Below are positions 11,255 through 55,417 of a stretch of 64,000 bases of DNA, one piece after another (position 1 is the first letter of the stretch; every line of letters starts with the position of its first letter). The DNA comes from a virus (lineage: Duplodnaviria > Caudoviricetes). The notes beneath the pieces were generated by a model, which was not told the DNA's origin, searched no databases, and saw nothing but the letters and a program-made list of their open reading frames with translations. Where the stretch lies: the IMG/VR virus record IMGVR_UViG_3300047567_000025, positions 96,001-160,000 of that record, one strand, 5' to 3'. The translations under genes were made by a program, and so were the position numbers.

Positions 11255-11260
11255 TTTTCA

Positions 11261-11343
11261 AATATATATTATTAATATGAATAAAATTATATTATAAAGC
11301 CATCACAGAGCTGTATAATCTGTGAAGAAAGAGGTATATTATG
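11261..11343 (+). promoter_or_regulatory. early promoter + conserved hairpin-SD leader (copy 1)
   Basis: AATATATATTATTAATATG followed by AAAGCCA-TCACAGA-GCTGTATAA-TCTGTGA-AGAAAGAGGTATATTATG. Confidence 0.8.
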
Positions 11344-11706
11344 AAATATACAAATGAAGTGTTCAAAGGTAATATAATAGAAAAAACATATGAAGATACT
11401 GTTTTCGATAATTGTTGTTTTGAAGGTGTTCTCTTTATAGGTGTTGAATTTAAAAACTGTCGATTTTTAAATTCAACATTTGAACAATGTACATTTGAAA
11501 ATTGTACTATAACAGCTACACGATGGACAAGTTGTACATTAAGTGAAGTCGATTTTGAGTTTACATTAGTTTATTATTCTAATTTTGATGAAGATTGTAA
11601 AATTAATGAAAACGTATTATTTATGTCAGGATGGGATGATAACATAAATAATGATATTGAAGAAATATTTGGAAATCTTCAATCACAAGTTAACATATGT
11701 AAATGA
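11341..11706 (+). CDS. pentapeptide repeat protein
   Basis: 5-residue periodicity: TVFDN CCFEG VLFIG VEFKN CRFLN STFEQ CTFEN. Confidence 0.85.
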   Translation: MKYTNEVFKGNIIEKTYEDTVFDNCCFEGVLFIGVEFKNCRFLNSTFEQCTFENCTITATRWTSCTLSEVDFEFTLVYYSNFDEDCKINENVLFMSGWDDNINNDIEEIFGNLQSQVNICK

Positions 11707-28918: not shown

Positions 28919-29051
28919 AATAAGATTATTAGATGATGATAATGCAGTATACATTGATATTGATCAGCTCGAATATAAAAGTCATATAAATATTATTTAA
29001 TGGAGCCCATATGGGCTCCATAATAATGTTTTTTATTATTTTGAATCTTTA

Positions 29052-29317
29052 AATATATATTATTAATATGAATAATAATCGAGCAAGAATACATAAATAT
29101 GAAAGAAGGTGTTATTATGAATGAAATTAGTGAAATTGTCATTATTGACACAACAGATTCAATCATTATAAATGATTAATTTTTAAATACTCAACCACAA
29201 ATATATCAAACCAACTTGCTCGATTATTATATAATGAGTAAAATATTTAAATATAATAAATTTATTATTAAAGCAATCACAGAGCTGTATAATCTGTGAA
29301 GAAAGAGGTATATTATG
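29052..29317 (+). promoter_or_regulatory. early promoter, 16-bp inverted repeat enclosing a mini-ORF, then hairpin-SD leader (copy 2)
   Basis: Promoter motif 29052..29070; IR arms 29072..29087 and 29215..29230; leader 29270..29317. Confidence 0.75.
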
Positions 29318-30028
29318 ATACAAAATGATTTATTCAATGAAAACTGTGCTACTGTTAGAAGTTGCATATCAGTTGCAGCAAATGCAATAAACTGCTTTTA
29401 TTTATGCTATAACATTTCGGGAAGTAATTCGGAACGATATGTTCTTAGAAGAATATCTGACAATATTGCTATGTATGAAATATATTCACGTATTTCTAAT
29501 AATGGTAGCATTCGTCTCGCAGTAAAAGAACATGGATGTGATAAGAATCGCATGGTTATCAAAATTAATAGTAAAAAAGAATTGAGTATTACAACGTATG
29601 ACGTGCCACTGTCAAACGATGATATCAAAATCATCGAATATATACAAAAATATCACAAATATCATATAAAAGGAGATTATAATATGATGAAAGATATAAA
29701 TTGCATTGATAGTGAAGCTGACCATACAGAAAAATTAATGATCATTCATCAGCCGATAATAATTCGAAACAATGTAGTTTTCATCGATGCACATTGTTCA
29801 TTATCTGAACTTATTTGTGCATTAAAAGACAACGTTGTAACGTTAGGCTTTGACGTTGGGCTTGACATAATTTCAATTGGTAATTCAGCAATTACTCAAA
29901 TATTTGTAATCGATGCTTCTAATATTAATGCTATTAAATTATACATTGGAGATGATCCTAATAGCATTGACGACGCTCGATGGGAACAGATCAAACGTAA
30001 TACGTTTGAAATAAATACAAATAAATGA
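29315..30028 (+). CDS. hypothetical two-domain protein with an internal in-frame start at 29684
   Basis: Conserved leader upstream; internal AAAGGAG SD before ATG 29684; C-terminal domain paralogous to part of 24917..26038. Confidence 0.6.
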   Translation: MIQNDLFNENCATVRSCISVAANAINCFYLCYNISGSNSERYVLRRISDNIAMYEIYSRISNNGSIRLAVKEHGCDKNRMVIKINSKKELSITTYDVPLSNDDIKIIEYIQKYHKYHIKGDYNMMKDINCIDSEADHTEKLMIIHQPIIIRNNVVFIDAHCSLSELICALKDNVVTLGFDVGLDIISIGNSAITQIFVIDASNINAIKLYIGDDPNSIDDARWEQIKRNTFEINTNK

Positions 30029-37630: not shown

Positions 37631-37704
37631 TTAAATCAGTCCTTTCTTCTGTAATTTGAATAGTGCATAGTTCTATCCATGATTATGAAGCGGTTTCACT
37701 ATAC

Positions 37705-38422
37705 TACATTTCTATTTCTATTTTTTTATTTTCTAAACATATATTTTTATAATGTAGGGGTTGATGTAATATAGTGATAATTACATCAATGGAAAAGTTG
37801 TGATATTAGATAATTAAAGATTAGAAAGCTAAGTAAGTAAGCTAATATTACATTTCTATTTCTATTTCTATTTTTTTATTTTCTAAACATATATTTTTAT
37901 AATGTAGGGGTTGATGTAATATAGTGATAATTACATCAGTGGAAAAGGTGTGATATTAGACTAATTAAAGATTAGAAAGCTAATAAGCTAATATTACATT
38001 TCTATTTCTATTTTTTTATTTTCTAAACATATATTTTTATAATGTAGGGGTTGATGTAATATAGTGATAATTACATCAGTGGAAAGAGTTGTGATATTAG
38101 ATAATTAAAGATTAGAAAGCTAAGTAAGCTTAATAAGCTAATATTACATTTCTATTTCTATTTCTATTTTTTTATTTTCTAAACATATATTTTTATAATG
38201 TATTGATGTAATATAGTGATAATTACATCTGGAAAAGTTGTGATATTAGATAATTAAAGATTAGAAAGCTAATAAGCTAATATTACATTTCTATTTCTAT
38301 TTTTTTATTTTCTAAACATATATTTTTATAATGTAGGGGTTGATGTAATATAGTGATAATTACATCAGTGAAAGAGGTGAGGATATTAGATAATTAAAGA
38401 TTAGAAAGCTAAGTAAGCTAAT
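37705..38422 (+). repeat. tandem array 2: five 137-152 bp units (inverted relative to array 1)
   Basis: Hairpin TGATGTAAT-ATAGTGATA-ATTACATC(A) at 37762, 37912, 38052, 38204, 38341; unit 4 lacks GGGG. Confidence 0.97.
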
Positions 38423-39700: not shown

Positions 39701-39844
39701 TTAGTAAGTACAATCATATAATATCCGTTAGGATATTGATTTCTTTTCATTAGTATTCTGGTATATTTCATATGCCAGAAGAATTCCTCCATTCTTCTTT
39801 TTTATATTCAATCGGGGCAATATGCCCCGATTGTATTATTATTA

Positions 39845-40012
39845 CATTTTTTCTATGCTGAGAGAGAGAGAGAGAGAGAGTATAGTTTGAATTGATTATT
39901 CCTATTATTTTAATTTTTCAAATATATATTATTAATATGAATAAAAGAATAGCAATCAATATTTAAAAGCAATCACAGAGCTGTATATCTGTGAAGAAAG
40001 AGGCATATTATG
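39845..40012 (+). promoter_or_regulatory. cassette left end: promoter + hairpin-SD leader (copy 3), including a (GA)10 tract
   Basis: Homologous to 54526..54706 over about 170 bp. Confidence 0.85.
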
Positions 40013-40971
40013 ATGAATGATTATTTAACAATAGTAAATGGAGTAGTAATTGATTGCAATACTACTGATGTAACTGATGTTGTTATTCCTGATGGAGTAA
40101 CATCTATAGGAGACCGTGCTTTTAGATTTCATAAAAGTCTTGAATCAATTACAATCCCTGATAGCGTTACATCTATAGAAAATAGTGTTTTCTATAGATG
40201 TGAAAGTCTCAAAAGCATTGAAATCCCCAATAGCGTAACAACTATTGGGAACTATGCTTTTGCATATTGTAAAAGCCTTAAAAGCGTTATCATTCCTAAT
40301 AGCGTTAAAACTATAAAAGAGGGCTCATAGATGTGAAAGTCTCAAAAGCATTGAAATCCCCAATAGCGTAACAACTATTGGGAAATGCTTTTGCATATTG
40401 TGAAAATCTTAAAAACATCACAATCCCTAATAGTGTTACACATATTGAGGGTAGTGCTTTTGAAGGTTGCTTTAATCTTGAAAGTATTATTATTCCTAAT
40501 AGCGTTACATCTATAGAAAATAGTGTTTTCTATAGATGTGAAAGTCTCAAAAGCATTGAAATCCCCAATAGCGTAACAACTATTGGGAACTATGCTTTTG
40601 CATATTGTGAAAATCTTAAAAACATCACAATCCCTAATAGCGTTACATCTATAGAAAATAGTGTTTTCTATGAATGTGAAAGTCTTGAAGAAATTACAAT
40701 CCCTAATAGTGTTACAACTATAGAAGATATGGTGTTTGAAGGTTGCTCTAATCTTAAAACAATTACAATCCCTAACAGCGTTAAGCTTATAGGAGACGGT
40801 GCTTTTGCATATTGTAAAAGTCTTAAAAGCATTACAATCCCTAATAGCGTAACATCTATAAACATTGAAGCTTTCTATGGCCGTGCAAATGTCGTGATTC
40901 ACTGTTATAAAAATTCATATGCAGAGGAATATGCAAAGAAAAATAATATTCCTTACAAGATTATTGATTAA
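40010..40971 (+). pseudogene. BspA-type leucine-rich repeat (LRR_5) protein with two frameshifts
   Basis: 23-aa repeats IP(N/D)SVT.I...AF..C.SL.SI continue through three frames, with breaks near 40325 and 40383. Confidence 0.8.
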
Positions 40972-40987
40972 AATAACAAACAATAAT

Positions 40988-41035
40988 AAAGCCATCACAG
41001 AGCTGTATAATCTGTGAAGAAAGAGGTATATTATG
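40988..41035 (+). promoter_or_regulatory. hairpin-SD leader (copy 4), with no promoter of its own
   Basis: AAAGCCATCACAGAGCTGTATAATCTGTGAAGAAAGAGGTATATTATG identical to copy 1. Confidence 0.85.
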
Positions 41036-41242
41036 ACGAACTCTTTTAAAATAGCATTAGCTATTACAGGCGGAGTTGTTGCGGTTGAAGCAACAATATC
41101 AAAAGCATATAGACTTGGAAAAGTTAAAGGCGCGGAAGAATTCTCAATATACATTAAGAACAAAGAAGCTCAAGAAAGACAGCAGGAAGAAGAATACGAA
41201 GACTTAGACAGAACTTTGAAGAATATACATTCATTAAATTAA
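41033..41242 (+). CDS. small protein with N-terminal hydrophobic segment
   Basis: Preceded by the conserved leader; IALAITGGVVAV followed by a charged tail. Confidence 0.65.
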   Translation: MTNSFKIALAITGGVVAVEATISKAYRLGKVKGAEEFSIYIKNKEAQERQQEEEYEDLDRTLKNIHSLN

Positions 41243-41303
41243 TAAATAAAAAAATAAAAGTAGGAACGGGGGCTGTTGCCCCCGTCACCGAAATTATTTT
41301 TTT
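41241..41303 (+). terminator. cassette right end / terminator
   Basis: AATAAATAAAAAAATAAAAGTAGGAACGGGGGCTGTTGCCCCCGTCACCGAAATTATTTTTT; near-identical to 55353..55417. Confidence 0.85.
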
Positions 41304-41305
41304 AT

Positions 41306-44300
41306 TTAAATAATACGAATTGGTTTAGTATTAGGAAATGTCGAATGCAGCCACATGCCATTATATGATTTATCAATAATGACATATACACCGGTCTTTA
41401 TAAATGATATAATTTTCACAGTATTATCAATATCATCAATATTTCCATCTGATTTTTTAGATATATATAATGTAAAATATCGAGAGCTAAATCCAGACGC
41501 AAATATTACAAAATCATTAGTATCGCTTCTGACATTGAGTTTGATATGCTGGTTATTTATTAATTCCATTCTATCGCGATGAGTTGTTAAAAATAAAGGA
41601 TTTGTTGTCTCTTCATACCGCCATATATTATCAAATAATTTAATAATATCTATATTTGGTATGTCGACTAATCCTAACGATTGAACTGTCTCGTGATTTA
41701 AAGAAATGCCATTTATCGATGGAATATTATATAATGTATTATAGTCAATAGATCCTTCAGGATCATTATATGACAACCCCATCAATATGTCATCTTCGAT
41801 ATCTCGGTTGTTTGTATCTGATATAATATTACCAATATAATCCTGTATTGGATGATGCTGATTTGCATTAAACATATATCGGATATCTTGTTTAGTTATA
41901 TTGGAATTACTTAGTAAAGCCAATTTATATGATGAAAAGGCTTTACCATTCAAATCAACATAAACGTTACCTTTCCGTATGATATTGGAATCCTTCGTAT
42001 CATCAACAAGTTCAACTAATTCAAAATTGTGTAATGACCTGAGGTTGCATAGCTGAAGAGTTGTTGGTGATAATATAATCAAGTCTTTGCTATTATTAAT
42101 ATATCGCCCATTTATCCAAAATTCATATCTATCGCGTGATAATGGTGTTGGTATATATCCAGTAACATCAATGAATCCATTTTCAGGAATTATATGTGCT
42201 GAATATCTGCAAATTCCAATATAGTTAGACTTAATTAATTTAACATCAGGATTTATAGATGTATCTATAGACAATCTGTTTGTATGTGAGTTTCTGCGAA
42301 TATCCGATAATGGCAATCTGATTTTATTTTTTGTATCGAAATAATATTCGAATGGATTAAATATAGCGCTGTTGTTAATCATAACAACATCACTGGAAGT
42401 CTTCTCATATTTATTGTTAAATATGATTTTTGTTTGCTTGCTTGTATCGATTGTATTATCATCATGCGGTACAAATATGCATTCGTTTGGTATTTCTTTA
42501 TGTATTGCCAATGAACTTGGTATCCGCATCCATGCACCTTTATCATCAATCAAGTTTTCCTTATCAAATGATATTTTTACCGTTATAATACCGCCACATG
42601 TTTTATACATATCATCTTTGAAAACAGTGCATATGAATTCACCTGCAACTACTTTGTCCATTGATGAGTTCGTTATCGATATTATTTGTTTATCATCTAT
42701 CAAAGCAGTTACTGCTTCAAACATAATGTTTCCTATATTACCATCATAAACACTACTTTCATTATTTTGAATACATAGTAATTTAATCGTGCGGCCATGT
42801 ATAAATGAATCGATTGGTTGATTGATAGTAACATCATACTTTGGAATTTTAAATTGCATCGTAGACGTTACGTCTTTAAAAGGCAAACGTACATACATAT
42901 CAAATTTTGTGAAATCATATGTAACGCCATTATTATAAATAGACACATCACATAATCTAATCACAGGTGCATTTGTATATTTACCAGTTCTTCTCGGGCG
43001 TATTATATGAAATGAATTTGCAATTGATATATCAGTCGGCGGATTATAACTATCAAAAATATATGATTCATTACAATCAAAATGCTTCCTTATCCGAATA
43101 TTATCGTAAGGATTAGCAGATGATGTTATATCATTTAATGAGTATACTGATTTAAAACGAACATCACATATATTATTAGATGAATGTATATCGTCAAATA
43201 CTTTTGACGACTTATATGAAATATATATTAACAATTCTTTTGACGGAACGAATCCAGATTTTGGGATAATTGATATAGAATGTAATACATTGTTTGTTGA
43301 ATAACTATCACATTCATCGATTTTGACAGCATTAACCATGTTTGTGCTAACTGAATACATATTTGGATTTATCCAGCACTTATGCTCCCAATCATATATG
43401 TATAATTCCAATTTGTCTGTAAATGGTATATCTCCGATATTTGACATAAATGAATGCGACAATTTAGCTCTGCCATTGGCAATATAAACAAGTGCGTCTT
43501 CATATGCACGAACATTATACCATGTTGTCGGTGATTCTAGTTGCTTGATATATGAGTCCATTCGTTTCTGAAACTCTATTTCATGTTCCTTGCCACGCTG
43601 GATTGAGTCAATCTGATTAATAATTCTTTCTCTTTCATAGTCTGTAGTAGCTCGCTCAAGTTGCTCTTTATATAAGACAAGTGCTCTTTCAAAATCAGGT
43701 ATCTTTGCTTCTGAACTACTCTTATACTGCTCAAATGTTTCAATTTCCTGATCCCATACAGCATGATCATTTGGCTCTTCTCTTAAAATAGGATATTTCT
43801 CCGGATTTGTCATAGTATCAAAGTCATGGTTTATCATTTTGATAGTAATTTCATCATCAATGTTATTTATACATCCATTGCCAATATAAATAAATCTATG
43901 TTGCTTATGTTCATCGTCGATAATATTATTTGGTACGAGAGAATTGAAAATCCATTGTAGACGGGTATATACATATGGCATATTGTTTTGCACATATATA
44001 GGATCTCCTGGGACAGAATAAGCATCCTTAACATTCTCATCTGAAATATCAACGTTAATATTTGCTAACGAGTTCGAATAAGTATTGAATGACGTATCGT
44101 TATATTCATCCAGGAAGTTTGATATATTATCAGCAATAATTGAGCATTTAATATTTGTTGTTAAGTAGCGTGTTATTTCATCTTCATCGTCAATACTAAA
44201 CCATTTACATTTTTTAGAATCAACGATTGCTTCAACAAATCCTTTATTTATTGAATGATCTATTGCTGTTATTATTATCGGAAATATATAGCGTTTATCA

Positions 44301-47300
44301 TCCGTAGAGACATATACATGTTGTCCAACATGATATCTACTACCTATAGAAGTAATAGATCCGTTTTCATTAAATGGTATATGAAATACTTGTACTGGCT
44401 TAAAGAATATTTTTTTTGAAACATTTTTTCCAAATTCTTGATTTATAATTCCATTAATAGTCTGATTATTAATAAAGATACGATCGATTGATCCTGGAAG
44501 CAATGACTTTGGCTGTAATATCATCTCAGACGTGTGATCGAGCTGTGTAAAATGATTACCTGCAAGCATTTCATAATTCATATTGCTTGATTTTTTATTA
44601 ACAATTAATCCATCCGGATTTATATCAAATGACTCATGTATATTTTCAATATCAATTTTAATATTGCTAATATTTAAAATCTGTTTAAATTTACCAACGA
44701 CTGTTGCTGACGATGATACCTTGCTAAATGTCAAAGAGCAATCAATTGTTTCTATAGTATTACCAGTTGCATCAATGATATTTAACTTGCATCCAGATAT
44801 TGAATCTCCATTAAAGAATGCATATTCGCATATTTTTATTAAAGAATTAATATAATATTTCCCATCGATCAATTCAACTATTGGCTTGAATATCATAGTG
44901 ATATCACCAATTAAACTTGTTCCGACAGGTGGATAAAAGTGACTATCCCTTGGTAATGTTATTGATGCAAATATTGGCTTTACTTGATAGCTTAGTTGAC
45001 TATCATATGTGATTCTATCAAGGGTATACATGCTAAATATATATTTTTTAAATATTGAATCACAATATTTGACGAGAGGTACTATGTGAGAATAGTGCAA
45101 TGACGTTGTTAAAGATGATAGTAAATTAATCATATCATCTATTACAGGTATTCTTGTATCCTGATATGCTTTACATGATTGACTCAGCTGATCGAATGTT
45201 TCTGCATTAATACCATCTATGATTATTGTGCTATTTGAAATAGCATTACCTAGATTTTTGATCAATTCAGAATCGATCGAATTAAGCCACTGCTTATACT
45301 GGTAAGGATTCATACATGTATTTATCTTCTTTAATGTTAGATATATCTTTCGTGCATAATCCAATATATAATTATCAAATCCTTTGTTTATGTATATTTG
45401 CTTCAGTATTGATAATATACGATTGAAGAATATTATAACCGAGATAGTCTTTCCATTAAATGTACATGTGCCTATTGTATCAATTTTACTTGTCATATCA
45501 TTAAATAATGATATTATTGGATTATTTGTTATGATAGACTCGACAATATTTGATATGGTATAATATTCAAATGAAGTTTCATGATCATGATAATATTTTG
45601 CAATTGCATAAATATGCTTTTGCAATGTTTCAATACCACTTTCGATACGAGAGCGCTGGTTATATGAAATATTATAGTTCGTTTGTAAATCACTGATGTA
45701 ATCATAAACAGAAGATATATATGACATTATTAATTTTGCAATATAGATATCATTATGATATGATTTTGTTTGATATCCATGTGATGATATATCTCTATAT
45801 TGCACGAAATATTGTTTGTCAATGTCAGCATCTGCTATTAACGGATATGATATATTATTGTCATATGAATTAAAAGTATATCTATACAATGATTTTATCG
45901 TCGGCGCGCCTGTATTATCAGTTATGATAGGTAGACCGTAGAACATATATTGACCACTAATCTCTGGTAATTTTGATGAATCAATATCAATTGTATTAGG
46001 AGCTAAAGAAAATTGAGAATAATCGATATCAAATGAATCCTTTCCATCAAACAGTTGACTGATACAGATATCAGAATATCTATTGCTAAATTTATTATGC
46101 GTTAACGAATTAAGAAAAAACGATTGAAGTTTATCTTCATTATCATATAACATGGATAATGTATAATAAAGAAAATTAATCGCAAATGGAGCACGATCGT
46201 CATCTTCACCCGCATGAATATTATCAGATGTAATGTTAGATACTTCGTAATTGATATCAGATGGATAAATATCAATGATGTCATCACCTGATATTTTTCT
46301 TTTAAGTATTTTAGAAAGTACCTGTGTACATGTTTCACCATCATATTTATTATATAACATCTTTGATATCTTGAGCAATTTATTCTCGGCATACCAATAA
46401 CGGATGTATCCAATATGATTATTTACTTCTGAATAGAATGCATCAAAATCTAATACGGTGTTCATATCAAGCGGATTTACATCTTTCTCTATAGGAGATT
46501 TTGTATCAGTATATAGCACGAAGAATTTAAATATTTCATCACCAGCAAGATTTTCATCAATGTAGAATGCGTTTTGAATACCATTGAAGTGTTTAATCAA
46601 AGGCGATGCAAATAGCCAACATTCTTCAGTACGACTATATTGCATTGTAATAAAGCATTGTTCTGTTACAGGACGATTGAAACGAGTGAAATTTTCATTT
46701 ACAAAATAATTATTTGATAAATTACTTAAATTTGCGAAGTTTGCTAATGTATTATTTCTGAATGGCTTTGTTATTGTATTAACAAATATCTGATAATTAT
46801 TATCGTAGAATTCATCAATAACATATTTCTGAAGGTCGGTAATTGATGTAACCTTGCGAAGCTCATCTATGTTATCCAATAACGTTGCAAACAATGTGAT
46901 TGATTCAGTTGATACTAACGATGTTAATATACTACCTTGCAGATAATCATTGTAACATTTCGAAAGGTCATCATAAATATCATTTAAAGGATATATTATG
47001 TCTTCATACAGATGATTATCATCTAATGAATTATAATGTATAGCACTTCCGATATTTCTAAATGATGAATCATATTTTATCATTCGATTGTACATGTCGA
47101 GACAATTTAAAATAATTTTAAATGATAAATTGATTGGTCTATCTAGTACTATAGGAGGTGTGCATACTTCAAGTGCATTAATATTGTTTGCTGAGCTAGC
47201 AACTATCTTATTTCCATCAACATCAACGACTCTACTTTCATCGTCTGTGAATACATGTCGTGAATCTATAATATCATAATAATTACAAGCAGGATATACA

Positions 47301-48262
47301 TTAGGTACTTCATGCAAATATCTAAATATATATATTACGGCAGTAACTGTTTCTGATTTATAATGAGATATATCATCCAATGTTCGTTTTTGTATATTAT
47401 TAATAGATAAGCCTGAATCATTAAAGATGCCATAGTTCGGAACACTTGGTACTGTTTTCGAGAAATCTTTATCATATATATTTATCAGACATTTCATATC
47501 TGACACATTAATATTATCATTAAGATTATTCAATTGCGAAAATGGAATCTTTCCTTCCAAAATATAGGATGAATCTATATCATATGATCTAACAAGAGAT
47601 TCATCCAGCTTATATATAATAAAATCAACATCAGCAGAATATTTCCAGCCAATCTTAAACTTAAAGCCTTTGTCATCAATCGCAATCATGCAATCGTTAC
47701 ATATAAATCCATTTACGGTACATAATATTGTGAATCCCAATATGTCTGATATATCGCTCATCACAAATTCATTTATTGGAATAAAATATTCATTTTCTGT
47801 AGTATGCATTTTGCATAACTTTTGACGAATAAATTCATCTCTATCTCCAAAATGTAATTGATTAAAAGGGACATCAATCATATAGTAATGAGCCGATTTA
47901 TCCATATACACATGATCTCGATCCATATTATTACAATGAAACATGACTGCATGCGTATTTACCAACATACTACTCATTGCATTTTTTAAAGAGATATCGT
48001 ATGTTTCAATTAATGATTGATTTATATCCTCGAATGTATAATTTGATCGACTCATTAAGTCTATAAGTCTATCAAAGCCTGCGTTGTTTCCTACAACACC
48101 AAATGGTTGCTCACTTAATAATTGTGATGACATGTCTATGAGTGTTTTATAACGTTCACCAACATCAATAGCTTTAGTATCATTATATGATTCTTTACCA
48201 TCACGAATACCTGTCAAATACCGATGTTGCTCATAAAACCATTTATTGTAGTTCATTATCAT
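41306..48262 (-). CDS. very large putative virion structural protein (2318 aa)
   Basis: Uninterrupted 6.96-kb ORF; SD GGAGAGGA; late motif AAACGAATCAGTAA at 48296..48309; no catalytic motif recognised. Confidence 0.6.
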   Translation of the reverse strand: MIMNYNKWFYEQHRYLTGIRDGKESYNDTKAIDVGERYKTLIDMSSQLLSEQPFGVVGNNAGFDRLIDLMSRSNYTFEDINQSLIETYDISLKNAMSSMLVNTHAVMFHCNNMDRDHVYMDKSAHYYMIDVPFNQLHFGDRDEFIRQKLCKMHTTENEYFIPINEFVMSDISDILGFTILCTVNGFICNDCMIAIDDKGFKFKIGWKYSADVDFIIYKLDESLVRSYDIDSSYILEGKIPFSQLNNLNDNINVSDMKCLINIYDKDFSKTVPSVPNYGIFNDSGLSINNIQKRTLDDISHYKSETVTAVIYIFRYLHEVPNVYPACNYYDIIDSRHVFTDDESRVVDVDGNKIVASSANNINALEVCTPPIVLDRPINLSFKIILNCLDMYNRMIKYDSSFRNIGSAIHYNSLDDNHLYEDIIYPLNDIYDDLSKCYNDYLQGSILTSLVSTESITLFATLLDNIDELRKVTSITDLQKYVIDEFYDNNYQIFVNTITKPFRNNTLANFANLSNLSNNYFVNENFTRFNRPVTEQCFITMQYSRTEECWLFASPLIKHFNGIQNAFYIDENLAGDEIFKFFVLYTDTKSPIEKDVNPLDMNTVLDFDAFYSEVNNHIGYIRYWYAENKLLKISKMLYNKYDGETCTQVLSKILKRKISGDDIIDIYPSDINYEVSNITSDNIHAGEDDDRAPFAINFLYYTLSMLYDNEDKLQSFFLNSLTHNKFSNRYSDICISQLFDGKDSFDIDYSQFSLAPNTIDIDSSKLPEISGQYMFYGLPIITDNTGAPTIKSLYRYTFNSYDNNISYPLIADADIDKQYFVQYRDISSHGYQTKSYHNDIYIAKLIMSYISSVYDYISDLQTNYNISYNQRSRIESGIETLQKHIYAIAKYYHDHETSFEYYTISNIVESIITNNPIISLFNDMTSKIDTIGTCTFNGKTISVIIFFNRILSILKQIYINKGFDNYILDYARKIYLTLKKINTCMNPYQYKQWLNSIDSELIKNLGNAISNSTIIIDGINAETFDQLSQSCKAYQDTRIPVIDDMINLLSSLTTSLHYSHIVPLVKYCDSIFKKYIFSMYTLDRITYDSQLSYQVKPIFASITLPRDSHFYPPVGTSLIGDITMIFKPIVELIDGKYYINSLIKICEYAFFNGDSISGCKLNIIDATGNTIETIDCSLTFSKVSSSATVVGKFKQILNISNIKIDIENIHESFDINPDGLIVNKKSSNMNYEMLAGNHFTQLDHTSEMILQPKSLLPGSIDRIFINNQTINGIINQEFGKNVSKKIFFKPVQVFHIPFNENGSITSIGSRYHVGQHVYVSTDDKRYIFPIIITAIDHSINKGFVEAIVDSKKCKWFSIDDEDEITRYLTTNIKCSIIADNISNFLDEYNDTSFNTYSNSLANINVDISDENVKDAYSVPGDPIYVQNNMPYVYTRLQWIFNSLVPNNIIDDEHKQHRFIYIGNGCINNIDDEITIKMINHDFDTMTNPEKYPILREEPNDHAVWDQEIETFEQYKSSSEAKIPDFERALVLYKEQLERATTDYERERIINQIDSIQRGKEHEIEFQKRMDSYIKQLESPTTWYNVRAYEDALVYIANGRAKLSHSFMSNIGDIPFTDKLELYIYDWEHKCWINPNMYSVSTNMVNAVKIDECDSYSTNNVLHSISIIPKSGFVPSKELLIYISYKSSKVFDDIHSSNNICDVRFKSVYSLNDITSSANPYDNIRIRKHFDCNESYIFDSYNPPTDISIANSFHIIRPRRTGKYTNAPVIRLCDVSIYNNGVTYDFTKFDMYVRLPFKDVTSTMQFKIPKYDVTINQPIDSFIHGRTIKLLCIQNNESSVYDGNIGNIMFEAVTALIDDKQIISITNSSMDKVVAGEFICTVFKDDMYKTCGGIITVKISFDKENLIDDKGAWMRIPSSLAIHKEIPNECIFVPHDDNTIDTSKQTKIIFNNKYEKTSSDVVMINNSAIFNPFEYYFDTKNKIRLPLSDIRRNSHTNRLSIDTSINPDVKLIKSNYIGICRYSAHIIPENGFIDVTGYIPTPLSRDRYEFWINGRYINNSKDLIILSPTTLQLCNLRSLHNFELVELVDDTKDSNIIRKGNVYVDLNGKAFSSYKLALLSNSNITKQDIRYMFNANQHHPIQDYIGNIISDTNNRDIEDDILMGLSYNDPEGSIDYNTLYNIPSINGISLNHETVQSLGLVDIPNIDIIKLFDNIWRYEETTNPLFLTTHRDRMELINNQHIKLNVRSDTNDFVIFASGFSSRYFTLYISKKSDGNIDDIDNTVKIISFIKTGVYVIIDKSYNGMWLHSTFPNTKPIRII

Positions 48263-48311
48263 TATCTAATCATCCTCTCCTGTTATATCAAAGACTTACT
48301 GATTCGTTTAT

Positions 48312-48613
48312 ATTTCTATTTCTATTTTTTTATTTTCTAAACATATATTTTTATAATGTAGGGGTTGATGTAATATAGTGATAATTACATCAATGGAAAA
48401 GGTGAGGATATTAGACTAATTAAAGATTAGAAAGCTAAATAAGCTAATAAGCTTAATAAGCTAATATTACTATTTCTTAATTTCTATTTTTTTATTTTCT
48501 AAACATATATTTTTATAATGTAGGGGTTGATGTAATATAGTGATAATTACATCAATGGAAAAGTTGTGATATTAACTAATTAAAGATTAGAAAGCTAAGT
48601 AAGCTAATATTAC
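48312..48613 (+). repeat. tandem array 3: two units (period 162 bp)
   Basis: Same core as arrays 1 and 2; hairpins at 48366 and 48528. Confidence 0.97.
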
Positions 48614-48643
48614 AAATATAATACTAAAAGGAGTAAATAAGTA

Positions 48644-49003
48644 ATGTATGATTTGACGTTTAAAGTTAAGCAACATGGAACATATCAGGGAATGACGTAT
48701 ATTATATTTTCATCGGCATCCGGATACTATAGATGCTATATAGGAATTCCCCAAAAGCAATGGCATGATGAAATCATCTATACTAAATTTAATAAAAGAA
48801 TGACTATAGGTGATAGATTTCTCAAAAGGCAATATCCCAATTTATCATTAAAAGATATTGATAATATTTGGATGTGTTTTGTTGCAAATAGTGATACTTC
48901 ATATGATAATTATGATAACACAAAAGATTTTGACCGATATATGTTGCATGAATGTCATGATGTGATAAATCGTATCATAGATGTTACCGATAATGCACAT
49001 TGA
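48644..49003 (+). CDS. hypothetical protein
   Basis: SD AAGGAG directly after array 3; terminator follows. Confidence 0.6.
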   Translation: MYDLTFKVKQHGTYQGMTYIIFSSASGYYRCYIGIPQKQWHDEIIYTKFNKRMTIGDRFLKRQYPNLSLKDIDNIWMCFVANSDTSYDNYDNTKDFDRYMLHECHDVINRIIDVTDNAH

Positions 49004-49014
49004 CAAAAAATATG

Positions 49015-49040
49015 TATTGGGGGCTTAATAGCCCCCAATA
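49015..49040. terminator. bidirectional terminator
   Basis: TATTGGGGGCT-TAAT-AGCCCCCAATA. Confidence 0.8.
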
Positions 49041-49043
49041 TAA

Positions 49044-52000
49044 TTATTTACTTTCCCATATTTTTCGCATTTTATTTTTTGTTTCAATCAAGACTTTGTT
49101 TGCTGATGCTGTTATCATTACAGAAGGTATCATACGTTTAAATATCGATGCTGGTGCAACAAACATAGATATTTCCTCTTCAGGCTTTCCCTCAGCATAA
49201 GGTTCAAGTCCTTCTGGAATTACCTCTGAAATTATTTGCTTAGAAGCACCATATGCAACTGCTTTATCACCAGTTGATGCTTCATCACTATGCTCAATAT
49301 ATATTTCGATAAGAATATCACATGTTATTCCTTTTATAGTAGATCCTTTTAGTGGTTCTGTTGGTAAAGAATATAATGTATCCAGCTTATATACCGAATC
49401 ACTTTTATCATATTTATCAAGTATTTTTCTTTTTCGTTTATTTGTGTTGAAATAATCCTCAAATAATTTAAATAGTGAAGGCGACAACTTGTCCATACTT
49501 TTAACAGTATACATACGGACATCAACAACAGTACCTGCATGTTTAGCCTTCATGATTCGTTTTGCTGCGTTAATTATATTATTATTATTAGATTTATCGG
49601 TATTATTTTGAAATGCTTTAAGAAAATTATCAACAGAGGTATCACCTGTATTTCCCAAGCCAAATACAATTAATGGATCATTGATTTCAACTTCGTCACC
49701 AACTTTTACAATTGATTCAATATCATCTGTTACATCTATTTTCATAGACTCCATCATCGTTAAATTTGTTTTAAGAAGCTTTGACATCTTTGTTGTAATA
49801 ATACCAGCATCTTCGTATGTTGAATATATACCAGTAAAAGCAATTTTTGCCATAGGTCCAATATTCATACGAACAAGTCCTGCAGAATCCTTATGGAAGA
49901 ACTTCTCATGATATGCTAATATGTCATTCTTTTTAAATTTATCATTAACTTCGAAATTTGATTGTAACCTATTATTTACATAAAAGCCGGAGCCTGTATT
50001 GAATGAATATTTATTATCAACGTTGATAGCTTGTTTCTTGCCATTCTTATACTGTACGACCATATATCCATCTGCAATTTCTAGTACAGTTCCATCATCT
50101 TGTGCTGTTACTGCAAATTCATCTGATAGATATGTTGGTACGATTTCATCAACTCCATTAGAAACGATAGCTGGTTCAGCACCATCTGTTGATAGGATAT
50201 GCGATGTTTGTGATGTAGCGATTGCTGTACGAATAGAATCATCTCGTGTTACCGTTCCAGGTGTCAATAATTCTGAGAATGATGCTAATTGTAAATCATT
50301 GAAATCTGTTTCAATTCCATCTGTTGACGTATATCCTCTGACAGATTCTATTTTTGGGTCAGCAACAAGCTGTCTTGTTATACCAACCGTACCATTATTA
50401 GGTGATGATATTGCCATTTTACCAATCATGGTGCTATCATATGTTCGCTTATCAAGTGAATATGCACGATCGTCATTTACACCTTTGAAACCTTTCTTAG
50501 TTATATTCTCTTTTGAATGCAATTCGACCATTGGATTTAAAGCTGATGATGGCTCAACGTTTGGAACTGCCAATAATTCATTAATTACTTCATTTGGATT
50601 AAATGCTAATGAATTACCACGTGTTTTAGAGCCAATATTATTATTGTATCTTGAGATTGCAACTGCTAATCTGTAATGTATTATAGCAGGGATTATTTCA
50701 GATGAGCGTATACGATACAACGATGAGGCATTCTCATTAGTATAGTTATTATCAGCTAATAAATTTGATGCATATATCAACATTCCAGTTATATCATTCG
50801 GAATATTATAATGACTACATACATCTTCAGTTATAGCATCAACAAAGAAATTATAATATGTAATAAATGTTGTTAGCTGTGAATACTGTTTAAAGAATTG
50901 CTGATTGAATATATCGACAAATACAGAATTAGTATTCATGATTGGAATATCAAAATCAGACACATTAAATGCTTTAGTATTAATACGATAGAAACCATTA
51001 AAGATTAATTGATTTGCTATAGTATTTGCTATGGCAAGCGTTTTATCCTTAAATGGAATACGTAAATAACCCGTATCATCAAAAGAACTATCAACAAATT
51101 GATATTTACATCCAGCTTTTTTTAGTATAGTGCTTAAACCTTCCCATGCTGTTATTGCAACACCTAATGGTACTGTTACACCAATCGTAATTTCAGAAAT
51201 ACATTGAAAGCTTTCCTGGTTTGATTTTTTTATATGTCCCTTTAAGTTCATCTGGTAAAGTATTAAATATAACGTCAGTTAAAGTTATGCCATCTCTAGT
51301 CAATCCTGTTTCTGTGTTAATAACAATTGGTACTTTATTAATCATGCCACAGCAGAACTCATTGTTTTGGACATTTACAAATGTATATGATTTTAAACAT
51401 TGCTGTCTGTTAAAGTATATTTCACATGCACTATCTGTATTAATATATGAAAACCATTTTCTTGCATATTCATCATATTCTATCGTGGAAACGAACCTAG
51501 AATTTGCAGATGTTGAAGATCCATTTTTTACATATTTATTACGACCGGATTCATCAGTTGCTGATTCGATTGTTTTCATCATAATGCTTAAATCAACCAA
51601 TGATCTAGTGTCATACCTATTGACTGTAATCTTATTGTAGTTACTCGTTAAAATAACTTTTTTCTTATTTATTTTGAGTATTGGTATAGGAAAATCTTGC
51701 TTTCCAATATTATACCAAATTCCATTATTATAAAACCTACCATTCATTACTCTTGGAACTCGTATATTTATAATCGATTGCATTCCAGATTGTTTATTTT
51801 TTAGAGTAACCTTCCAGTTATTTGTTAATGAAGTAATCGTACTAACATCAGTAACTTCGACATTAGTCACATAAAATCCATCTGGCAATTTCGAAAGATT
51901 CATAAAGGTAGCTACAATATCTCTATCCATAAGATTATCTTCATATGCTTTTGATATATTTGCAAAAGATGAGCCTCTTACAGAACCTCTATTCGTTGTC

Positions 52001-53331
52001 GTTATTTTCAATGGTGTTAATGGTGCTGGTTTTGGTATATCTGTTATAGATGTGAGTTTATTAAATGTCACATTGTTTAATTTAAGCTGTCCAATTTGCG
52101 TTCTAATCTTTAGCTCTCGTGCAGATGTTGTTGTATTCATAACATTTGTAGCATTTATAGGAGAAGCATCCTTTTCAATCTTTTTAGAAGCGTCTTTTAT
52201 TAGTTTTTCTTCAACCGGATTATCTGACGAATTAATCAATTCTTCTGTAAGTTTCTTATAATTGCTGATGGAATCACTATCAGGAGTTATACGATGAATT
52301 AACTCAGCATTGATATTCAATGTCTTCGCGTTATATAAACTATTTGGTGTACTAATATTATCGTTAAGATGATTTGTTTTGCCATATTTAGCTGCTAATA
52401 ATTCAATTGATGATTTAACAGAATCTGCTGTTGATTTGTTTGATTCTTTAACACCAACGATTTCACCATCTTCTATATCAACATCATCAAGTGAATCAGA
52501 ACTATCATCATCATCAGTATCACCATCATTTTCCGTTGAAAATGAATCTATACTATCACCTGCTTCTTCATTGCTAGTAGCACTCATTTCCATAGGTTTT
52601 CCTATTTCATTAATAACCGATTTTAATTGAATTATATCATTATTATTTAATAATGATAAATCTAATCGATAATCAGCATCTGGTGATCGGAATATAATTA
52701 TAATTGGTAATGGCTTAATCATATCACGATTGTTAAGAATATATGCAGAAAGCAATGCATTGATAACATCTGTTTTGAATGTACTTCTTATTGGATTCTG
52801 ATATATACCAAATCTCTTTGTATCTATAATAAGTACTTTCTGTTTAGAAAAGTTAAATATATTCATTATCTTTGAAAATATATCAAATATATTAGACTGA
52901 ATATACTCTATGCTAAATGATCTGATATGTTGTGTCATTGCTAATATTACTTCTGACATTGGTATATAAATATTATCAGTTATCGTTTTTGGATAAGGCG
53001 GCTTTATATTGGTTAATCTCGGAAGAATATTTTGAGCATTAAGATACATTAGTTTCTTATTATAATCATTTGAATTAACATTAAATCGAAATTGTTTTAT
53101 TCCAATTTTCTCATTAATATTGCTTGGGATTATGATATCTTTATAATCACTTTTAGGGGCTGGCATATGCTTTATTAATTCAATATCATATTCATAAGAA
53201 TCTGATAATAAAAATATCGAGGCATCTTTTTTTTGAGCAGGAAGCTGAAGACGCATCTTATTTGCTGATAAATTATTACCAAATGTAAAACTTGTTGCTT
53301 CTTGAAAATAATGTTTCATTAAATAAATCAC
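49044..53331 (-). CDS. RNA polymerase beta-like subunit (probably virion RNAP), about 1430 aa, frame broken near 51198
   Basis: beta motifs in the 3' ORF: SPNNGTVGI, DDSIRTAIATSQ, YEDAGII, GDK...GASKQIIS, KRM; the 5' ORF overlaps it and ends KPGKLSMYF*. Confidence 0.85.
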
Positions 53332-53409
53332 TCCTTATATGAATTTCAGATTATTAATCTTTAAAATATCGTCACTTATGTATTAATATTATCGAGGAGG
53401 ACATTCTAA

Positions 53410-53586
53410 ATGCAAAATGATGAATATTATACTTGCCGAACATGTGGTGCGAATCTGGATATCGGCGAAGAATGTGAAGATTGCCGAAAGATATATGATA
53501 ATGTTTTCGTAGAAACACGATTGTCAGATTATGAAAATGATGATGGTGAAGGAGGTGATACATTTGAAAACTACAATTACATATAG
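53410..53586 (+). CDS. 58-aa zinc-finger protein
   Basis: Not in the ORF track; SD GAGGAGG; YYTCRTCGANLDIGEECEDC. Confidence 0.65.
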   Translation: MQNDEYYTCRTCGANLDIGEECEDCRKIYDNVFVETRLSDYENDDGEGGDTFENYNYI

Positions 53587-53821
53587 CCCATTCGTATGCA
53601 TTTCGGATGTAACTGGAAATATGGAGAAATTAAACACTGTCATATTTAATCCAATTCTTTCAAAAGAGCATAATAAAATCGTAATAAAAAAAGAATGCAA
53701 TTTACGATATGATCTCATGTTGTCGGATGAGCAACTAGAGTCATTAGTAAATAATTCTGTTAATGATTTTATCACAGAATTACACGGAATTATAGTTCGG
53801 CATAAAGCAAATAGATCATAA
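53564..53821 (+). CDS. hypothetical protein (TTG start)
   Basis: SD GGAGGTG before TTG 53564, in frame with ORF 53531..53821. Confidence 0.5.
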   Translation: MKTTITYSPFVCISDVTGNMEKLNTVIFNPILSKEHNKIVIKKECNLRYDLMLSDEQLESLVNNSVNDFITELHGIIVRHKANRS

Positions 53822-53831
53822 AATAAAAAAA

Positions 53832-53861
53832 TTATATACGGGGATTTATTCCCCCGTATAT
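53832..53861. terminator. bidirectional terminator
   Basis: TATACGGGG...CCCCGTATA between convergent genes. Confidence 0.75.
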
Positions 53862-53876
53862 AATAATATTTACTGT

Positions 53877-54467
53877 TTATGCCATTTCTTTAAATTCTGC
53901 AAATAATAAATGATCGGTCATATTAACTATTCTTGATATAGTATTGATCGATATCTTTATATCGCTGGTATCTTCGCTATTGTTATATTTTGCTACTAAC
54001 TGTGCAATATTATTGACGATCGTTGGCTTTAATGTATTTACCATTTTATTACGTATCATCTGTGGTGTGATATTAAACTGATCGATGACATACTCAAATA
54101 AACCATTAAAGGATACTACTGGGCCGGTAAATACCCATTCTTTAATTGTATTTGACATATCAGATTCCATTAAATAGATAACACAACAGATGGAGTGTTG
54201 ATGATTTCTGATATCGGATAATATGCAGCCTAACTTCATCTGTGATAATGAGTTAGTTGCAGAATTTAATAACTTGATTAGACGGTCATTTAATGATTCT
54301 GCATGTATAACTTTATCCGATACCGCTCTACATAGTGCCTGCATAAGTATGTCGTTGCCTGCCTTGTTGTCCATATTGAGAGTCGGCTTTGCATTAACAA
54401 TGTCTTTTAGTTTACTAATAGATTCCATTGTCATCATATTTTTAGCTTCTTCCAATGATATACTCAT
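53877..54467 (-). CDS. hypothetical protein
   Basis: Early promoter motif on the minus strand at 54481..54501 and SD GAAAGGAAG point to the start MSISLEE. Confidence 0.6.
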   Translation of the reverse strand: MSISLEEAKNMMTMESISKLKDIVNAKPTLNMDNKAGNDILMQALCRAVSDKVIHAESLNDRLIKLLNSATNSLSQMKLGCILSDIRNHQHSICCVIYLMESDMSNTIKEWVFTGPVVSFNGLFEYVIDQFNITPQMIRNKMVNTLKPTIVNNIAQLVAKYNNSEDTSDIKISINTISRIVNMTDHLLFAEFKEMA

Positions 54468-54525
54468 TGTATCACTTCCTTTCATATTAATAATATATTT
54501 TTCAAATCGCAAAAAAATATTATTG

Positions 54526-54706
54526 CATTTTTTCTATGCTTAGAGGGAGCGTAAAAGAAGGAATGGTTGGATTGATTATTCCTATTATTTTAACTTTTCA
54601 AATATATATTATTAATATGAATAAAAGAATAACAATCGATCAATAAATCAATATTTAAAAGCCATCACAGAGGTGTATTAATCTGTGAAGAAAGAGGTAT
54701 ATTATG
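54526..54706 (+). promoter_or_regulatory. cassette left end: promoter + hairpin-SD leader (copy 5)
   Basis: Homologous to 39845..40012; stem TCACAGA/TCTGTGA kept, loop changed to GGTGTATTAA. Confidence 0.85.
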
Positions 54707-54952
54707 ATGAACGTTTTTAAAAGAATTGAGACACTTGAAAAGCTTACAGAAATCAACACAGCTTCGAACGCTATAACAGCGCTGATTGTAACTACAGGTG
54801 CTGCAGTTACGATTGTTTCATCAGTAGTAAAAGGCGGAATGGCTATTACAAAGGCTATAAAAAATAAGAAACTTGCTAAGGAAAATAGCAAAGGTACAGA
54901 AAAAGACAATAGCAAAGGTACAGAAGAAAAGATCGATCAATCAAAAGAGTAA
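54704..54952 (+). CDS. small membrane-associated protein
   Basis: Conserved leader; hydrophobic AITALIVTTGAAVTIVSSVV plus Lys/Glu tail. Confidence 0.65.
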   Translation: MMNVFKRIETLEKLTEINTASNAITALIVTTGAAVTIVSSVVKGGMAITKAIKNKKLAKENSKGTEKDNSKGTEEKIDQSKE

Positions 54953-55025
54953 TGACATTACTATCAATATATTAGATGATATAACATCTAATAATATATC
55001 AAATTAATTTTAGGAGGAAAATATA

Positions 55026-55361
55026 ATGATTAATGAAATTATGAATGTGGCCGGACTTGCCCTAAGTGCATCTGCTAGTTGTTTAAACTCAATTAGCTTA
55101 GGTAAAAATGCAAAAAAGATAGCAGAGCTTTCTGATAGAGTGACCTCTCTTGAAAAGAGAGATCTTATCATGGAGGGTTGCTTCGTAGGCTTTGGTGCAG
55201 CAGCATTAACTGCTGACATAATCAATAAGCGTAAGCAGAATAAACTTAAAAAGAGGATAGATCTTCTCGAATCAACTGTAGAGGTACTTCAAGGAAGCTG
55301 TGTTAAGCAGTCTGACTTGAAGGCATCTACAGATGCAATTATATCAGCTATCAATAAATAA
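55026..55361 (+). CDS. small protein with hydrophobic segments and coiled coil
   Basis: SD AGGAGG; second cargo gene of the cassette. Confidence 0.65.
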   Translation: MINEIMNVAGLALSASASCLNSISLGKNAKKIAELSDRVTSLEKRDLIMEGCFVGFGAAALTADIINKRKQNKLKKRIDLLESTVEVLQGSCVKQSDLKASTDAIISAINK

Positions 55362-55417
55362 AAAAATAAAAGTAGGAACGGGGGTAATAACCCCCGTCAC
55401 CGAAATTATTTTTTTTT
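55353..55417 (+). terminator. cassette right end / terminator
   Basis: Same as 41241..41303 except the loop and a covarying closing pair (T-A versus C-G). Confidence 0.85.

Follow-up and report, generated by a model that had tools for sequence, protein, structure and literature searches.

Dispersed early units with common ends, and probable exchange of their cargo genes, in an AR9/PBS1-like jumbo phage

The 64,000-nucleotide stretch of DNA analyzed here (the window; bases 96001-160000 of the 212,263-bp IMG/VR virus record IMGVR_UViG_3300047567_000025) carries two small gene cassettes, at positions 39845-41303 and 54526-55417, which an earlier note made from the sequence alone had described as sharing their left and right ends around unrelated cargo. 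We find that they belong to a set of five dispersed, self-contained early transcription units in a jumbo phage of the AR9/PBS1 kind, and that the unit copies are, by the pattern of their shared sites, mosaics of one another. The explanation that we favor, at a probability of roughly 0.6, is that the ends common to the units served as homology through which cargo was exchanged. Positions below are those of the window unless the genome, meaning the whole record, is named.

The long left end occurs in five units genome-wide, and the same right end closes four of these (U1, U2, U4, and U5). The two window cassettes, both on the plus strand, are U4 (39845-41303), with a leucine-rich-repeat (LRR) gene followed by a 69-aa gene, and U5 (54526-55417), with an 82-aa gene followed by a 111-aa gene. 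The remaining units are U1 (genome 1830-4221, plus strand), which contains two LRR genes, the first one damaged; U2 (genome 39294-38601, minus strand), with a single intact 160-aa LRR gene at genome 38653-39135; and U3 (from genome 47534, plus strand), which has a 95%-identical paralog of the 82-aa gene, its own terminator, and then a leader and a 311-aa gene. Self-comparison of the genome aligned the left ends of U4 (39837-40017) and U5 (54518-54711) with 84% identity over 195 nt and their right ends (41238-41303 and 55350-55415) with 91% identity over 66 nt, so the matching ends are where the earlier note had placed them. Pairwise divergence among the five copies is 5-22%. The first-position cargo is either an LRR gene or the 82-aa gene, and what comes after it is of five kinds: no further gene, the 69-aa gene, the 111-aa gene, the 311-aa gene, or a second LRR gene. 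BspA-type LRR genes are thus found in three units (U1, U2, and U4) and the paralogs encoding the 82-aa membrane protein in two (U3 and U5). The two cassettes are real, but because cargo families recur among the five units the cargo is not simply unrelated. All of the units sit between flanking genes that are conserved, and other early promoters and terminators of the same genome have only the core, or nothing, in common with them.

The phage encodes split RNA polymerase beta genes (49044-53331, minus strand), the best matches of which among deposited phages, at ~30% identity, are the Staphylococcus jumbo phages S6, PALS_2, and MarsHill, Listeria phage LPJP1, and Yersinia phage phiR1-37. It is an uncultivated jumbo phage with a split multisubunit RNA polymerase and a distant relative of AR9, PBS1, and Staphylococcus phage S6; its host is probably Gram-positive. 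Twelve large IMG/VR contigs (150-278 kb) have the gene order around U5 in common with it, at 42-63% protein identity. Near-identical phages were sought with the terminator, the leader, and the left-end spacer against IMG/VR, with the spacer against GTDB genomes, and with the terminator against metagenome contigs; these searches returned only one strain-level contig of 1 kb.

The left end is, as judged from its sequence, an early promoter region of the type used by the AR9 virion RNA polymerase. For this enzyme of Bacillus phage AR9, experiments gave the early-promoter consensus AAATATATATTAT-N6-G, with the G as the transcription start (PMC5312081), and the core promoter of the units matches that consensus exactly. 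In U4, an AT-rich upstream block (TTCCTATTATTTTAA...) and the core occupy 39899-39939, with the predicted start G at 39939; in U5 the corresponding region is 54579-54619, with the predicted start G at 54619 (both on the plus strand). Exact AR9-type cores number seven in the genome, four of them in the window, and the 24-nt core with its four exact window copies has an expectation of 0, as it is absent from 100 shuffles of the window. When one mismatch is allowed there are 10 matches in the genome as against 0 in a reversed control, and 5-18 as against 0-1 in the control for five relatives. The cores are oriented toward downstream genes, and the same phage encodes a multisubunit RNA polymerase. 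Sigma-70-like sites show no enrichment (11 as against 12.2 expected); given this and the exact AR9 consensus, a sigma-70 reading of the promoter was rejected. Expression early in infection fits a promoter of this type, and the units are called early in that predicted sense. Divergent from U5 on the minus strand, a 211-aa open reading frame (ORF) followed by the split RNA polymerase beta genes has an early promoter of its own (region 54465-54502, with the promoter, one mismatch from the consensus, at 54483-54502), which would drive this gene and the beta genes beyond it. Translation of the ORF probably begins at the ATG at 54467, for a protein of ~197 instead of 211 aa.

Further blocks extend the left end upstream of the core. 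A box with TTTTCTATGCT forms the far-left edge of the shared region in U4 (39845-39859, plus strand) and is found in U5 at 54526-54540 (plus strand); it is present in all five units and also upstream of early promoters in related phages. In U4 the box is followed by a (GA)10 microsatellite (39860-39879, plus strand), and in U5 by a degenerate GA tract. GA tracts of at least five repeats (16, 14, 10, and 6 repeats) occur only in the left ends of four units and nowhere else in the 212 kb (window 39860-39879; genome 1845, 47569, and 39267), and none is found in the closest relative. The spacer of U3 is partly duplicated between two GA tracts. The AT-rich block directly upstream of the core is present in relatives too. 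Just upstream of U4 is a GC-rich, terminator-like hairpin (39809-39833, plus strand), the same one that precedes U1; four units have a hairpin at ~90-120 nt before the core, and the fifth has none. In two relatives the TTTTCTATGCT box, with a second TATGCT 17 nt later, is located at a fixed distance before several early promoters. The direct repeat in these relatives (G002 and G004) reads TATGCTrC-N9-TATGCTrC, with an exact spacing of 17 nt, ~55-60 nt before the core of several early promoters, and it looks like a regulator binding site. The phage studied here keeps only the first half of the TATGCT repeat, the second half being replaced by the (GA)n tract and the spacer.

Downstream of the predicted start, the 5′ leader of U4 (39940-40009, plus strand) contains a 7-bp hairpin (39973-39994) and a purine-rich Shine-Dalgarno sequence (39996-40003) ahead of the start codon at 40010, and that of U5 (54620-54703, plus strand) contains the hairpin at 54665-54688 and the Shine-Dalgarno sequence at 54690-54697. 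This 45-nt module of hairpin and ribosome site is present in 11 copies genome-wide, some of them before the second genes of units. Among the copies the stem is kept and the loop varies, and for this reason the TATAAT-like loop of the hairpin was rejected as a promoter. The closest relative has a three-copy leader of its own, in which the loop and the ribosome site are similar and the stem differs; in other relatives unrelated hairpins occupy the leader position.

The right end is a predicted bidirectional intrinsic terminator, which would also serve the convergent neighbor; stops of the unit transcripts are expected at 41265-41303 (U4) and 55377-55417 (U5). It consists of an A-tract, a GC hairpin, and a T-tract, at 41241-41303 in U4 and 55353-55417 in U5 (both plus strand), and faces a convergent 2318-aa gene and a convergent 259-aa gene, respectively. 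The two terminators fold with energies of -29.8 and -22.7 kcal/mol (z = -6.3 and -4.3), their A- and T-tracts pair, and a terminator scan picked up the shared terminator on the minus strand. Two window copies match the 47-nt terminator pattern as against 0 expected (it is absent from 100 window shuffles). The terminators of U1, U2, U4, and U5 are identical in stem and flanks and differ only in the loop. In Rfam the two window terminators gave only sub-threshold matches to a Staphylococcus cis-regulatory model (25-28 bits; gathering score 56). The loop of the U5 terminator (55377-55392) and that of the strain-level metagenome contig (contig 642-657) are exact reverse complements, TAATAA as against TTATTA, which suggests that the hairpin was inverted by template switching. 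The units had been described as meeting late structural genes head-to-head; the right-hand neighbors are instead arranged tail-to-tail with the units, and the 2318-aa and 259-aa proteins match no family and have no recognizable function.

The evidence for exchange comes from how these parts are combined. When the five left ends are aligned, their informative sites yield six different 2:3 groupings within ~250 nt, when a single tree allows two, and between the upstream box and the start codon 24 of the 45 site pairs fail the four-gamete test. Exactly at the stop codon, which lies in an A-rich tract, the 3′ ends of the LRR genes pass into one of three modules: the terminator, a remnant plus the terminator, or an internal leader. 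The remnant, found in U1 after the stop of the second LRR gene and before the shared terminator, is a stretch of ~22 nt matching the 3′-terminal codons and the stop of the U5 111-aa gene, and the U1 terminator therefore seems to derive from a U5-type unit. In U4 the LRR gene lies between two copies of the leader, 87% identical over 71 nt, the internal copy of hairpin and Shine-Dalgarno sequence (40972-41032, plus strand) forming a direct repeat with the first; such a pair is what a crossover within the leader would be expected to leave. The LRR and 82-aa first-position cargoes are identical in their first 8-9 coding bases. Within this genome the LRR_5 family is confined to U1, U2, and U4; it is absent from three relatives and in a fourth is found only in proteins of 800-1000 aa, so that the LRR cargo is specific to this lineage and has multiplied inside the genome.

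Uniform ends and a leader directly repeated around the LRR gene, as after insertion of a circle by a single crossover, could also point to a dedicated mobile element, with the ends as recognition sites at which a specific enzyme encoded elsewhere in the phage excises and reinserts circles. Mini-circles are documented for the promoter-early stem-loop (PeSL) cassettes of T4-type phages (PMC2839356). We regard such an element as quite improbable here, as no integrase or transposase gene lies in or beside the units, the units hold no endonuclease or other nuclease gene, their ends do not form inverted repeats, target-site duplications are not seen, and a promoter and a terminator fully explain the ends. 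The units are autonomous, and the earlier observation that they contain no integrase or transposase is correct. An integron, transposon, or integrative element was likewise rejected, there being no enzyme and no matching end structure, either attC-like or inverted-repeat.

Exchange by way of the shared ends, the reading we prefer, would work as follows. The virion RNA polymerase would recognize the AAATATATATTAT-N6-G core together with the AT-rich block and start at the G, giving a transcript with a 70-85-nt leader that places a hairpin and a purine-rich ribosome-binding site ahead of the start codon. Transcription would continue through one or two cargo genes and stop at the bidirectional hairpin terminator, which would end the transcript of the convergent neighbor as well. 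The promoter region, leader, and terminator would at the same time provide stretches of homology for the recombination and replication machinery of the phage, acting by gene conversion, unequal crossover, or template switching. Such exchange would have spread the LRR gene to three sites, placed it before an older 69-aa gene with the leader duplicated on either side, linked it with a terminator taken over from the 111-aa gene, and combined the 82-aa gene with different second genes. Recombination as a process is what we infer from these arrangements. A stronger version has the ends as portable homology arms of a copy-and-swap system, possibly operating via excised circles like those of T4-type phages, that multiplies and re-assorts early host-takeover genes, with the (GA)n tract, confined to these ends, serving as a tuner prone to slippage or as a hotspot of recombination. 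No earlier PeSL-like shuffling system would then have been based on a promoter for a virion RNA polymerase. We consider that version speculative and unlikely as a whole.

Comparison with relatives at the five sites shows both change and constancy. In the closest relative the U4 site is a gap of 405 nt with neither promoter nor gene, and another relative has there the box, promoter, leader, one gene for a membrane-type protein of ~110 aa, and terminator, with no LRR gene. At the U1 site the closest relative carries early units on the opposite strand with other cargo; its U2 site is an empty gap of 393 nt, and its U3 site is without the promoter and the 82-aa gene. The genes that flank the U5, U4, and U2 sites are adjacent in several relatives (gaps of 43-167 nt or 393-405 nt). 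Cargo or occupancy thus differs from the closest relatives at four of the five syntenic sites. The U5 site, between the 211-aa and 259-aa genes, is different in this respect: five contigs from four phages (two of the contigs are identical over the region) have there an early promoter, two small membrane-type genes, and a terminator of their own, and the product of the second gene in these relatives aligns collinearly with the 111-aa protein (25% identity, pairwise E = 0.002). In four relatives at a greater distance the site is a gap of 43-167 nt that contains a terminator hairpin and nothing else; of the remaining relatives, one carries another gene here, and for two of them the 211-aa neighbor was not found. 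The 1-kb strain-level contig carries the 82-aa gene, the 111-aa gene, the terminator, and the neighboring gene in the order seen in U5. The earlier note had proposed collecting both ends genome-wide and in relatives and asking whether cargo differs at syntenic sites. Four sites that differ and one that looks fixed, all seen against distant relatives, leave the idea of exchange neither refuted nor proven.

Multiplication of early units extends beyond this genome. The closest relative (G001; 2400-2730, 50100-50430, and 165700-167200) has dispersed and tandem small early units, each a promoter and a short ORF, that are 79-96% identical, which makes multiplication of early units a clade-wide feature, and in relatives several units have promoter stretches of 45-90 nt in common.

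These promoter stretches are one reason to consider that the units might be ordinary paralogous regulatory regions, which arose by one or a few old duplications, are kept alike by selection, and acquired their cargo by independent gain and loss, with no continuing exchange. Conservation of the promoter blocks across the clade fits that account, and so does the retention of the U5 cargo at its site in relatives and in the strain variant. It accounts poorly for the parts that the units share without evident function, namely the GA tract, the spacer, the 5′ and 3′ flanks of the terminator, and the remnant of codons from the 111-aa gene, when other early promoters and terminators in the genome share the core only or nothing. 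The six conflicting groupings in ~250 nt and the presence of both ends, 84-91% identical, around unrelated cargo also speak against it. We hold paralogy without exchange to be possible, though on the doubtful side.

Several further observations weigh against exchange through the shared ends. The TTTTCTATGCT box, the AT-rich block, the core, and the first transcribed bases are kept in phages with only 45-65% protein identity; this clade-wide conservation means that selection on function accounts for part of the similarity of the left ends, with no need of a dedicated recombination arm for that part. The U5 cargo looks fixed, with two small membrane genes in four relatives and the same cargo in the strain contig. 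The closest relative is distant, and the differences at the other sites could stem from any process. The mosaic test rests on five sequences and its statistical power is limited, and in these genomes no recombinant junction, circle, or recombinase was seen. The LRR genes contain exact 58-nt repeats and several copies are frame-broken, which could reflect decay or assembly error in the repeats. Of the proposal of a recombination-driven system with exchangeable cargo, then, the mosaic copies and the four differing sites speak in favor, and the seemingly fixed U5 cargo and a left end that is mostly a clade-wide promoter do not.

The repeats and frame breaks in the LRR genes, together with the many indels of U1 and its location near the contig junction, would also be expected if the assembler had misjoined cargo at the repeated regulatory sequences or had collapsed repeats. 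We judge an artifact of this kind very improbable: the independent 1-kb metagenome contig repeats the U5 order of 82-aa gene, 111-aa gene, terminator, and neighbor, and the flanking gene order agrees with the 12 related phage contigs. Because the five copies are 5-22% apart they are not collapsed duplicates, and collapse of repeats was rejected as the origin of the family.

The cargo of U4 and U5 is as the earlier note had listed it, an LRR gene with a 69-aa ORF and 82-aa and 111-aa ORFs, with the correction that the LRR gene is frame-broken. This gene (40010-40971, plus strand) is assembled in two frames, 40010-40330 and 40378-40971, and at the break the 69-nt repeat period falls to 64 and 67 nt. 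The matches to LRR_5 (PF13306) score 99.8 and 281.5 bits against a curated Pfam cut-off of 27.7, and the closest solved structures are 4gt6 and 4fs7. By sequence, the LRR cargo consists of ordinary BspA-type repeats without a signal peptide; a peptide-pattern search of IMG/VR found no relatives of it. Relative G002 encodes a 440-aa protein that is coiled coil in its N-terminal part and consists of BspA-type LRRs in its C-terminal part; the gene adjoins an adhesin-like gene, and LRR domains of the clade are thus present in probable virion proteins as well. The 69-aa ORF (41033-41242, plus strand) has one hydrophobic helix and no family match. The 82-aa ORF (54704-54952, plus strand) is of a single-helix membrane type, and its 95%-identical paralog heads U3 (genome 47740). 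The C-terminal tail of the 82-aa protein contains a variable, KDNSKGTE-like tandem repeat, the copy number of which differs among the two paralogs and the strain variant (genome 47900-48100 in U3, window 54880-54930, and strain contig 130-190) and which is frame-shifted in U3. The 111-aa ORF (55026-55361, plus strand) has two hydrophobic segments and a coiled coil, and related phages have probable orthologs of it in the same place. For the 69-, 82-, and 111-aa proteins, searches of PHROGs and Pfam were negative, barring a weak match to a "hemolysin" PHROG (E = 0.007) that we do not rely on, and the ESM Atlas gave only sub-threshold matches for the 111-aa protein. LRR proteins free of signal peptides and small early membrane proteins suggest a role in host takeover, a function we assign tentatively.

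The closest known parallel is the PeSL cassette of T4-type phages (Arbiol et al. 2010, PMC2839356; Comeau et al. 2014, PMC4122927), to which the earlier note had compared the two window cassettes. In both systems repeated early-promoter and terminator sequences surround small genes of no known function at variable places in the genome of a large lytic phage (PMC2839356, PMC4122927), a Shine-Dalgarno sequence and start codon stand at the 3′ edge, and the copies appear to recombine such that cargo is inserted, deleted, or replaced. The setting is also found here, as the unit cargo is of no known function apart from the LRR fold and four of the five sites differ from the closest relatives. The PeSL promoter, however, is sigma-70-like and fused with the terminator in one motif of 50-70 nt, whereas the units described here have a promoter of the AR9 virion-RNA-polymerase type and a terminator at opposite ends, with a shared left end of ~170 nt. 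A T4-type genome has ~50 PeSL copies; the present phage has five long ones. PeSLs form mini-circles, and recombination between PeSL copies accounts for indels and replacements among close relatives; the present units are known from genome sequence. The comparison holds as to how the units would work, but since they have neither a sigma-70-like promoter nor a promoter-fused stem-loop, we read them as an analog of PeSLs and not as members of that family. A full-text literature search found no paper tying PeSLs to jumbo phages beyond a citation in a reference list.

The likeness to AR9 lies in the promoters and polymerase: genes are preceded by the exact AAATATATATTAT-N6-G core of the AR9 early promoters (Lavysh et al. 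2017, PMC5312081), and the phage has genes for a multisubunit RNA polymerase with split subunits. AR9-like phages have only ~30% identity to this phage in RNA polymerase beta. The promoters here, the activity of which is predicted, have in addition the conserved upstream blocks and the repeated leader, neither of which was noticed for AR9 in the excerpt of PMC5312081.

Each unit also fits the concept of a moron, as an autonomous unit of promoter, gene, and terminator between conserved genes that is present in one phage and absent from the same place in a relative. Morons were reportedly described in lambdoid and other temperate phages by Juhala et al. and Hendrix et al., both in 2000. Classical morons are expressed from the prophage by the host polymerase, and their ends are not shared as a multi-copy family; the units here, by contrast, are predicted early lytic units of a jumbo phage and do share their ends. 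The leader recalls the 5′ stem-loop/polypurine mRNA stabilizers of Bacillus and of phage SP82 early RNA, which Hue, Cohen, and Bechhofer (1995) and Hambraeus et al. (2002) are said to have described. The resemblance is one of architecture only, a hairpin beside a purine-rich, strong ribosome-binding site heading each cistron. Unlike in the stabilizers, the hairpin of the promoter-proximal copies here is 35-45 nt from the predicted 5′ end.

Three more early units in the genome, two of them in the window (11260 and 29051), have a core promoter and leader only, without the long left end or the shared terminator. The first (11260-11706, plus strand) has as cargo a 121-aa pentapeptide-repeat protein, and the second (29051-30028, plus strand) comprises a core promoter, a short upstream ORF, a leader copy, and a 237-aa gene. 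The latter is duplicated at genome 162836, with 95% identity over 336 nt, and in both copies (window 29051-29317; genome 162836-163169) an ORF of ~20-26 aa lies between promoter and leader. The closest relative has a comparable short ORF after the same promoter, and the ORF is a possible candidate for a leader peptide. Tandem arrays with a unit of ~140-150 bp, each unit combining a hairpin with a promoter-like sequence that departs from the AR9 early consensus at two positions, are found at six or seven genome sites, in the window at 793-1687, 37672-38419, and 48276-48606; one array is directly upstream of the 399-aa gene that precedes U4. The ends of the record, both outside the window (genome 1-637 and 211624-212263), overlap by ~640 nt at 99.5% identity. 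On account of this overlap the genome is probably complete, either circularly closed or terminally redundant, at ~211.6 kb; in IMG/VR the record is classed as linear, with a completeness of 76%.

In jumbo phages that arrive with an RNA polymerase of their own, the genes expressed first are small ones for host takeover, most of which are uncharacterized. If early units do re-assort by way of their shared ends, this early gene set would be renewed without dedicated mobile-element enzymes, and the PeSL principle would reach beyond T4-type phages, with their host sigma-70 promoters, to a very different transcription system. The analysis also yields a set of early promoters, a conserved box upstream of them as a possible regulator binding site, and a repeated leader of hairpin and ribosome site as a candidate expression module. 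Finally, the cytoplasmic BspA-type LRR proteins and the small membrane proteins are candidate host-interaction proteins in phages of gut or rumen Firmicutes.

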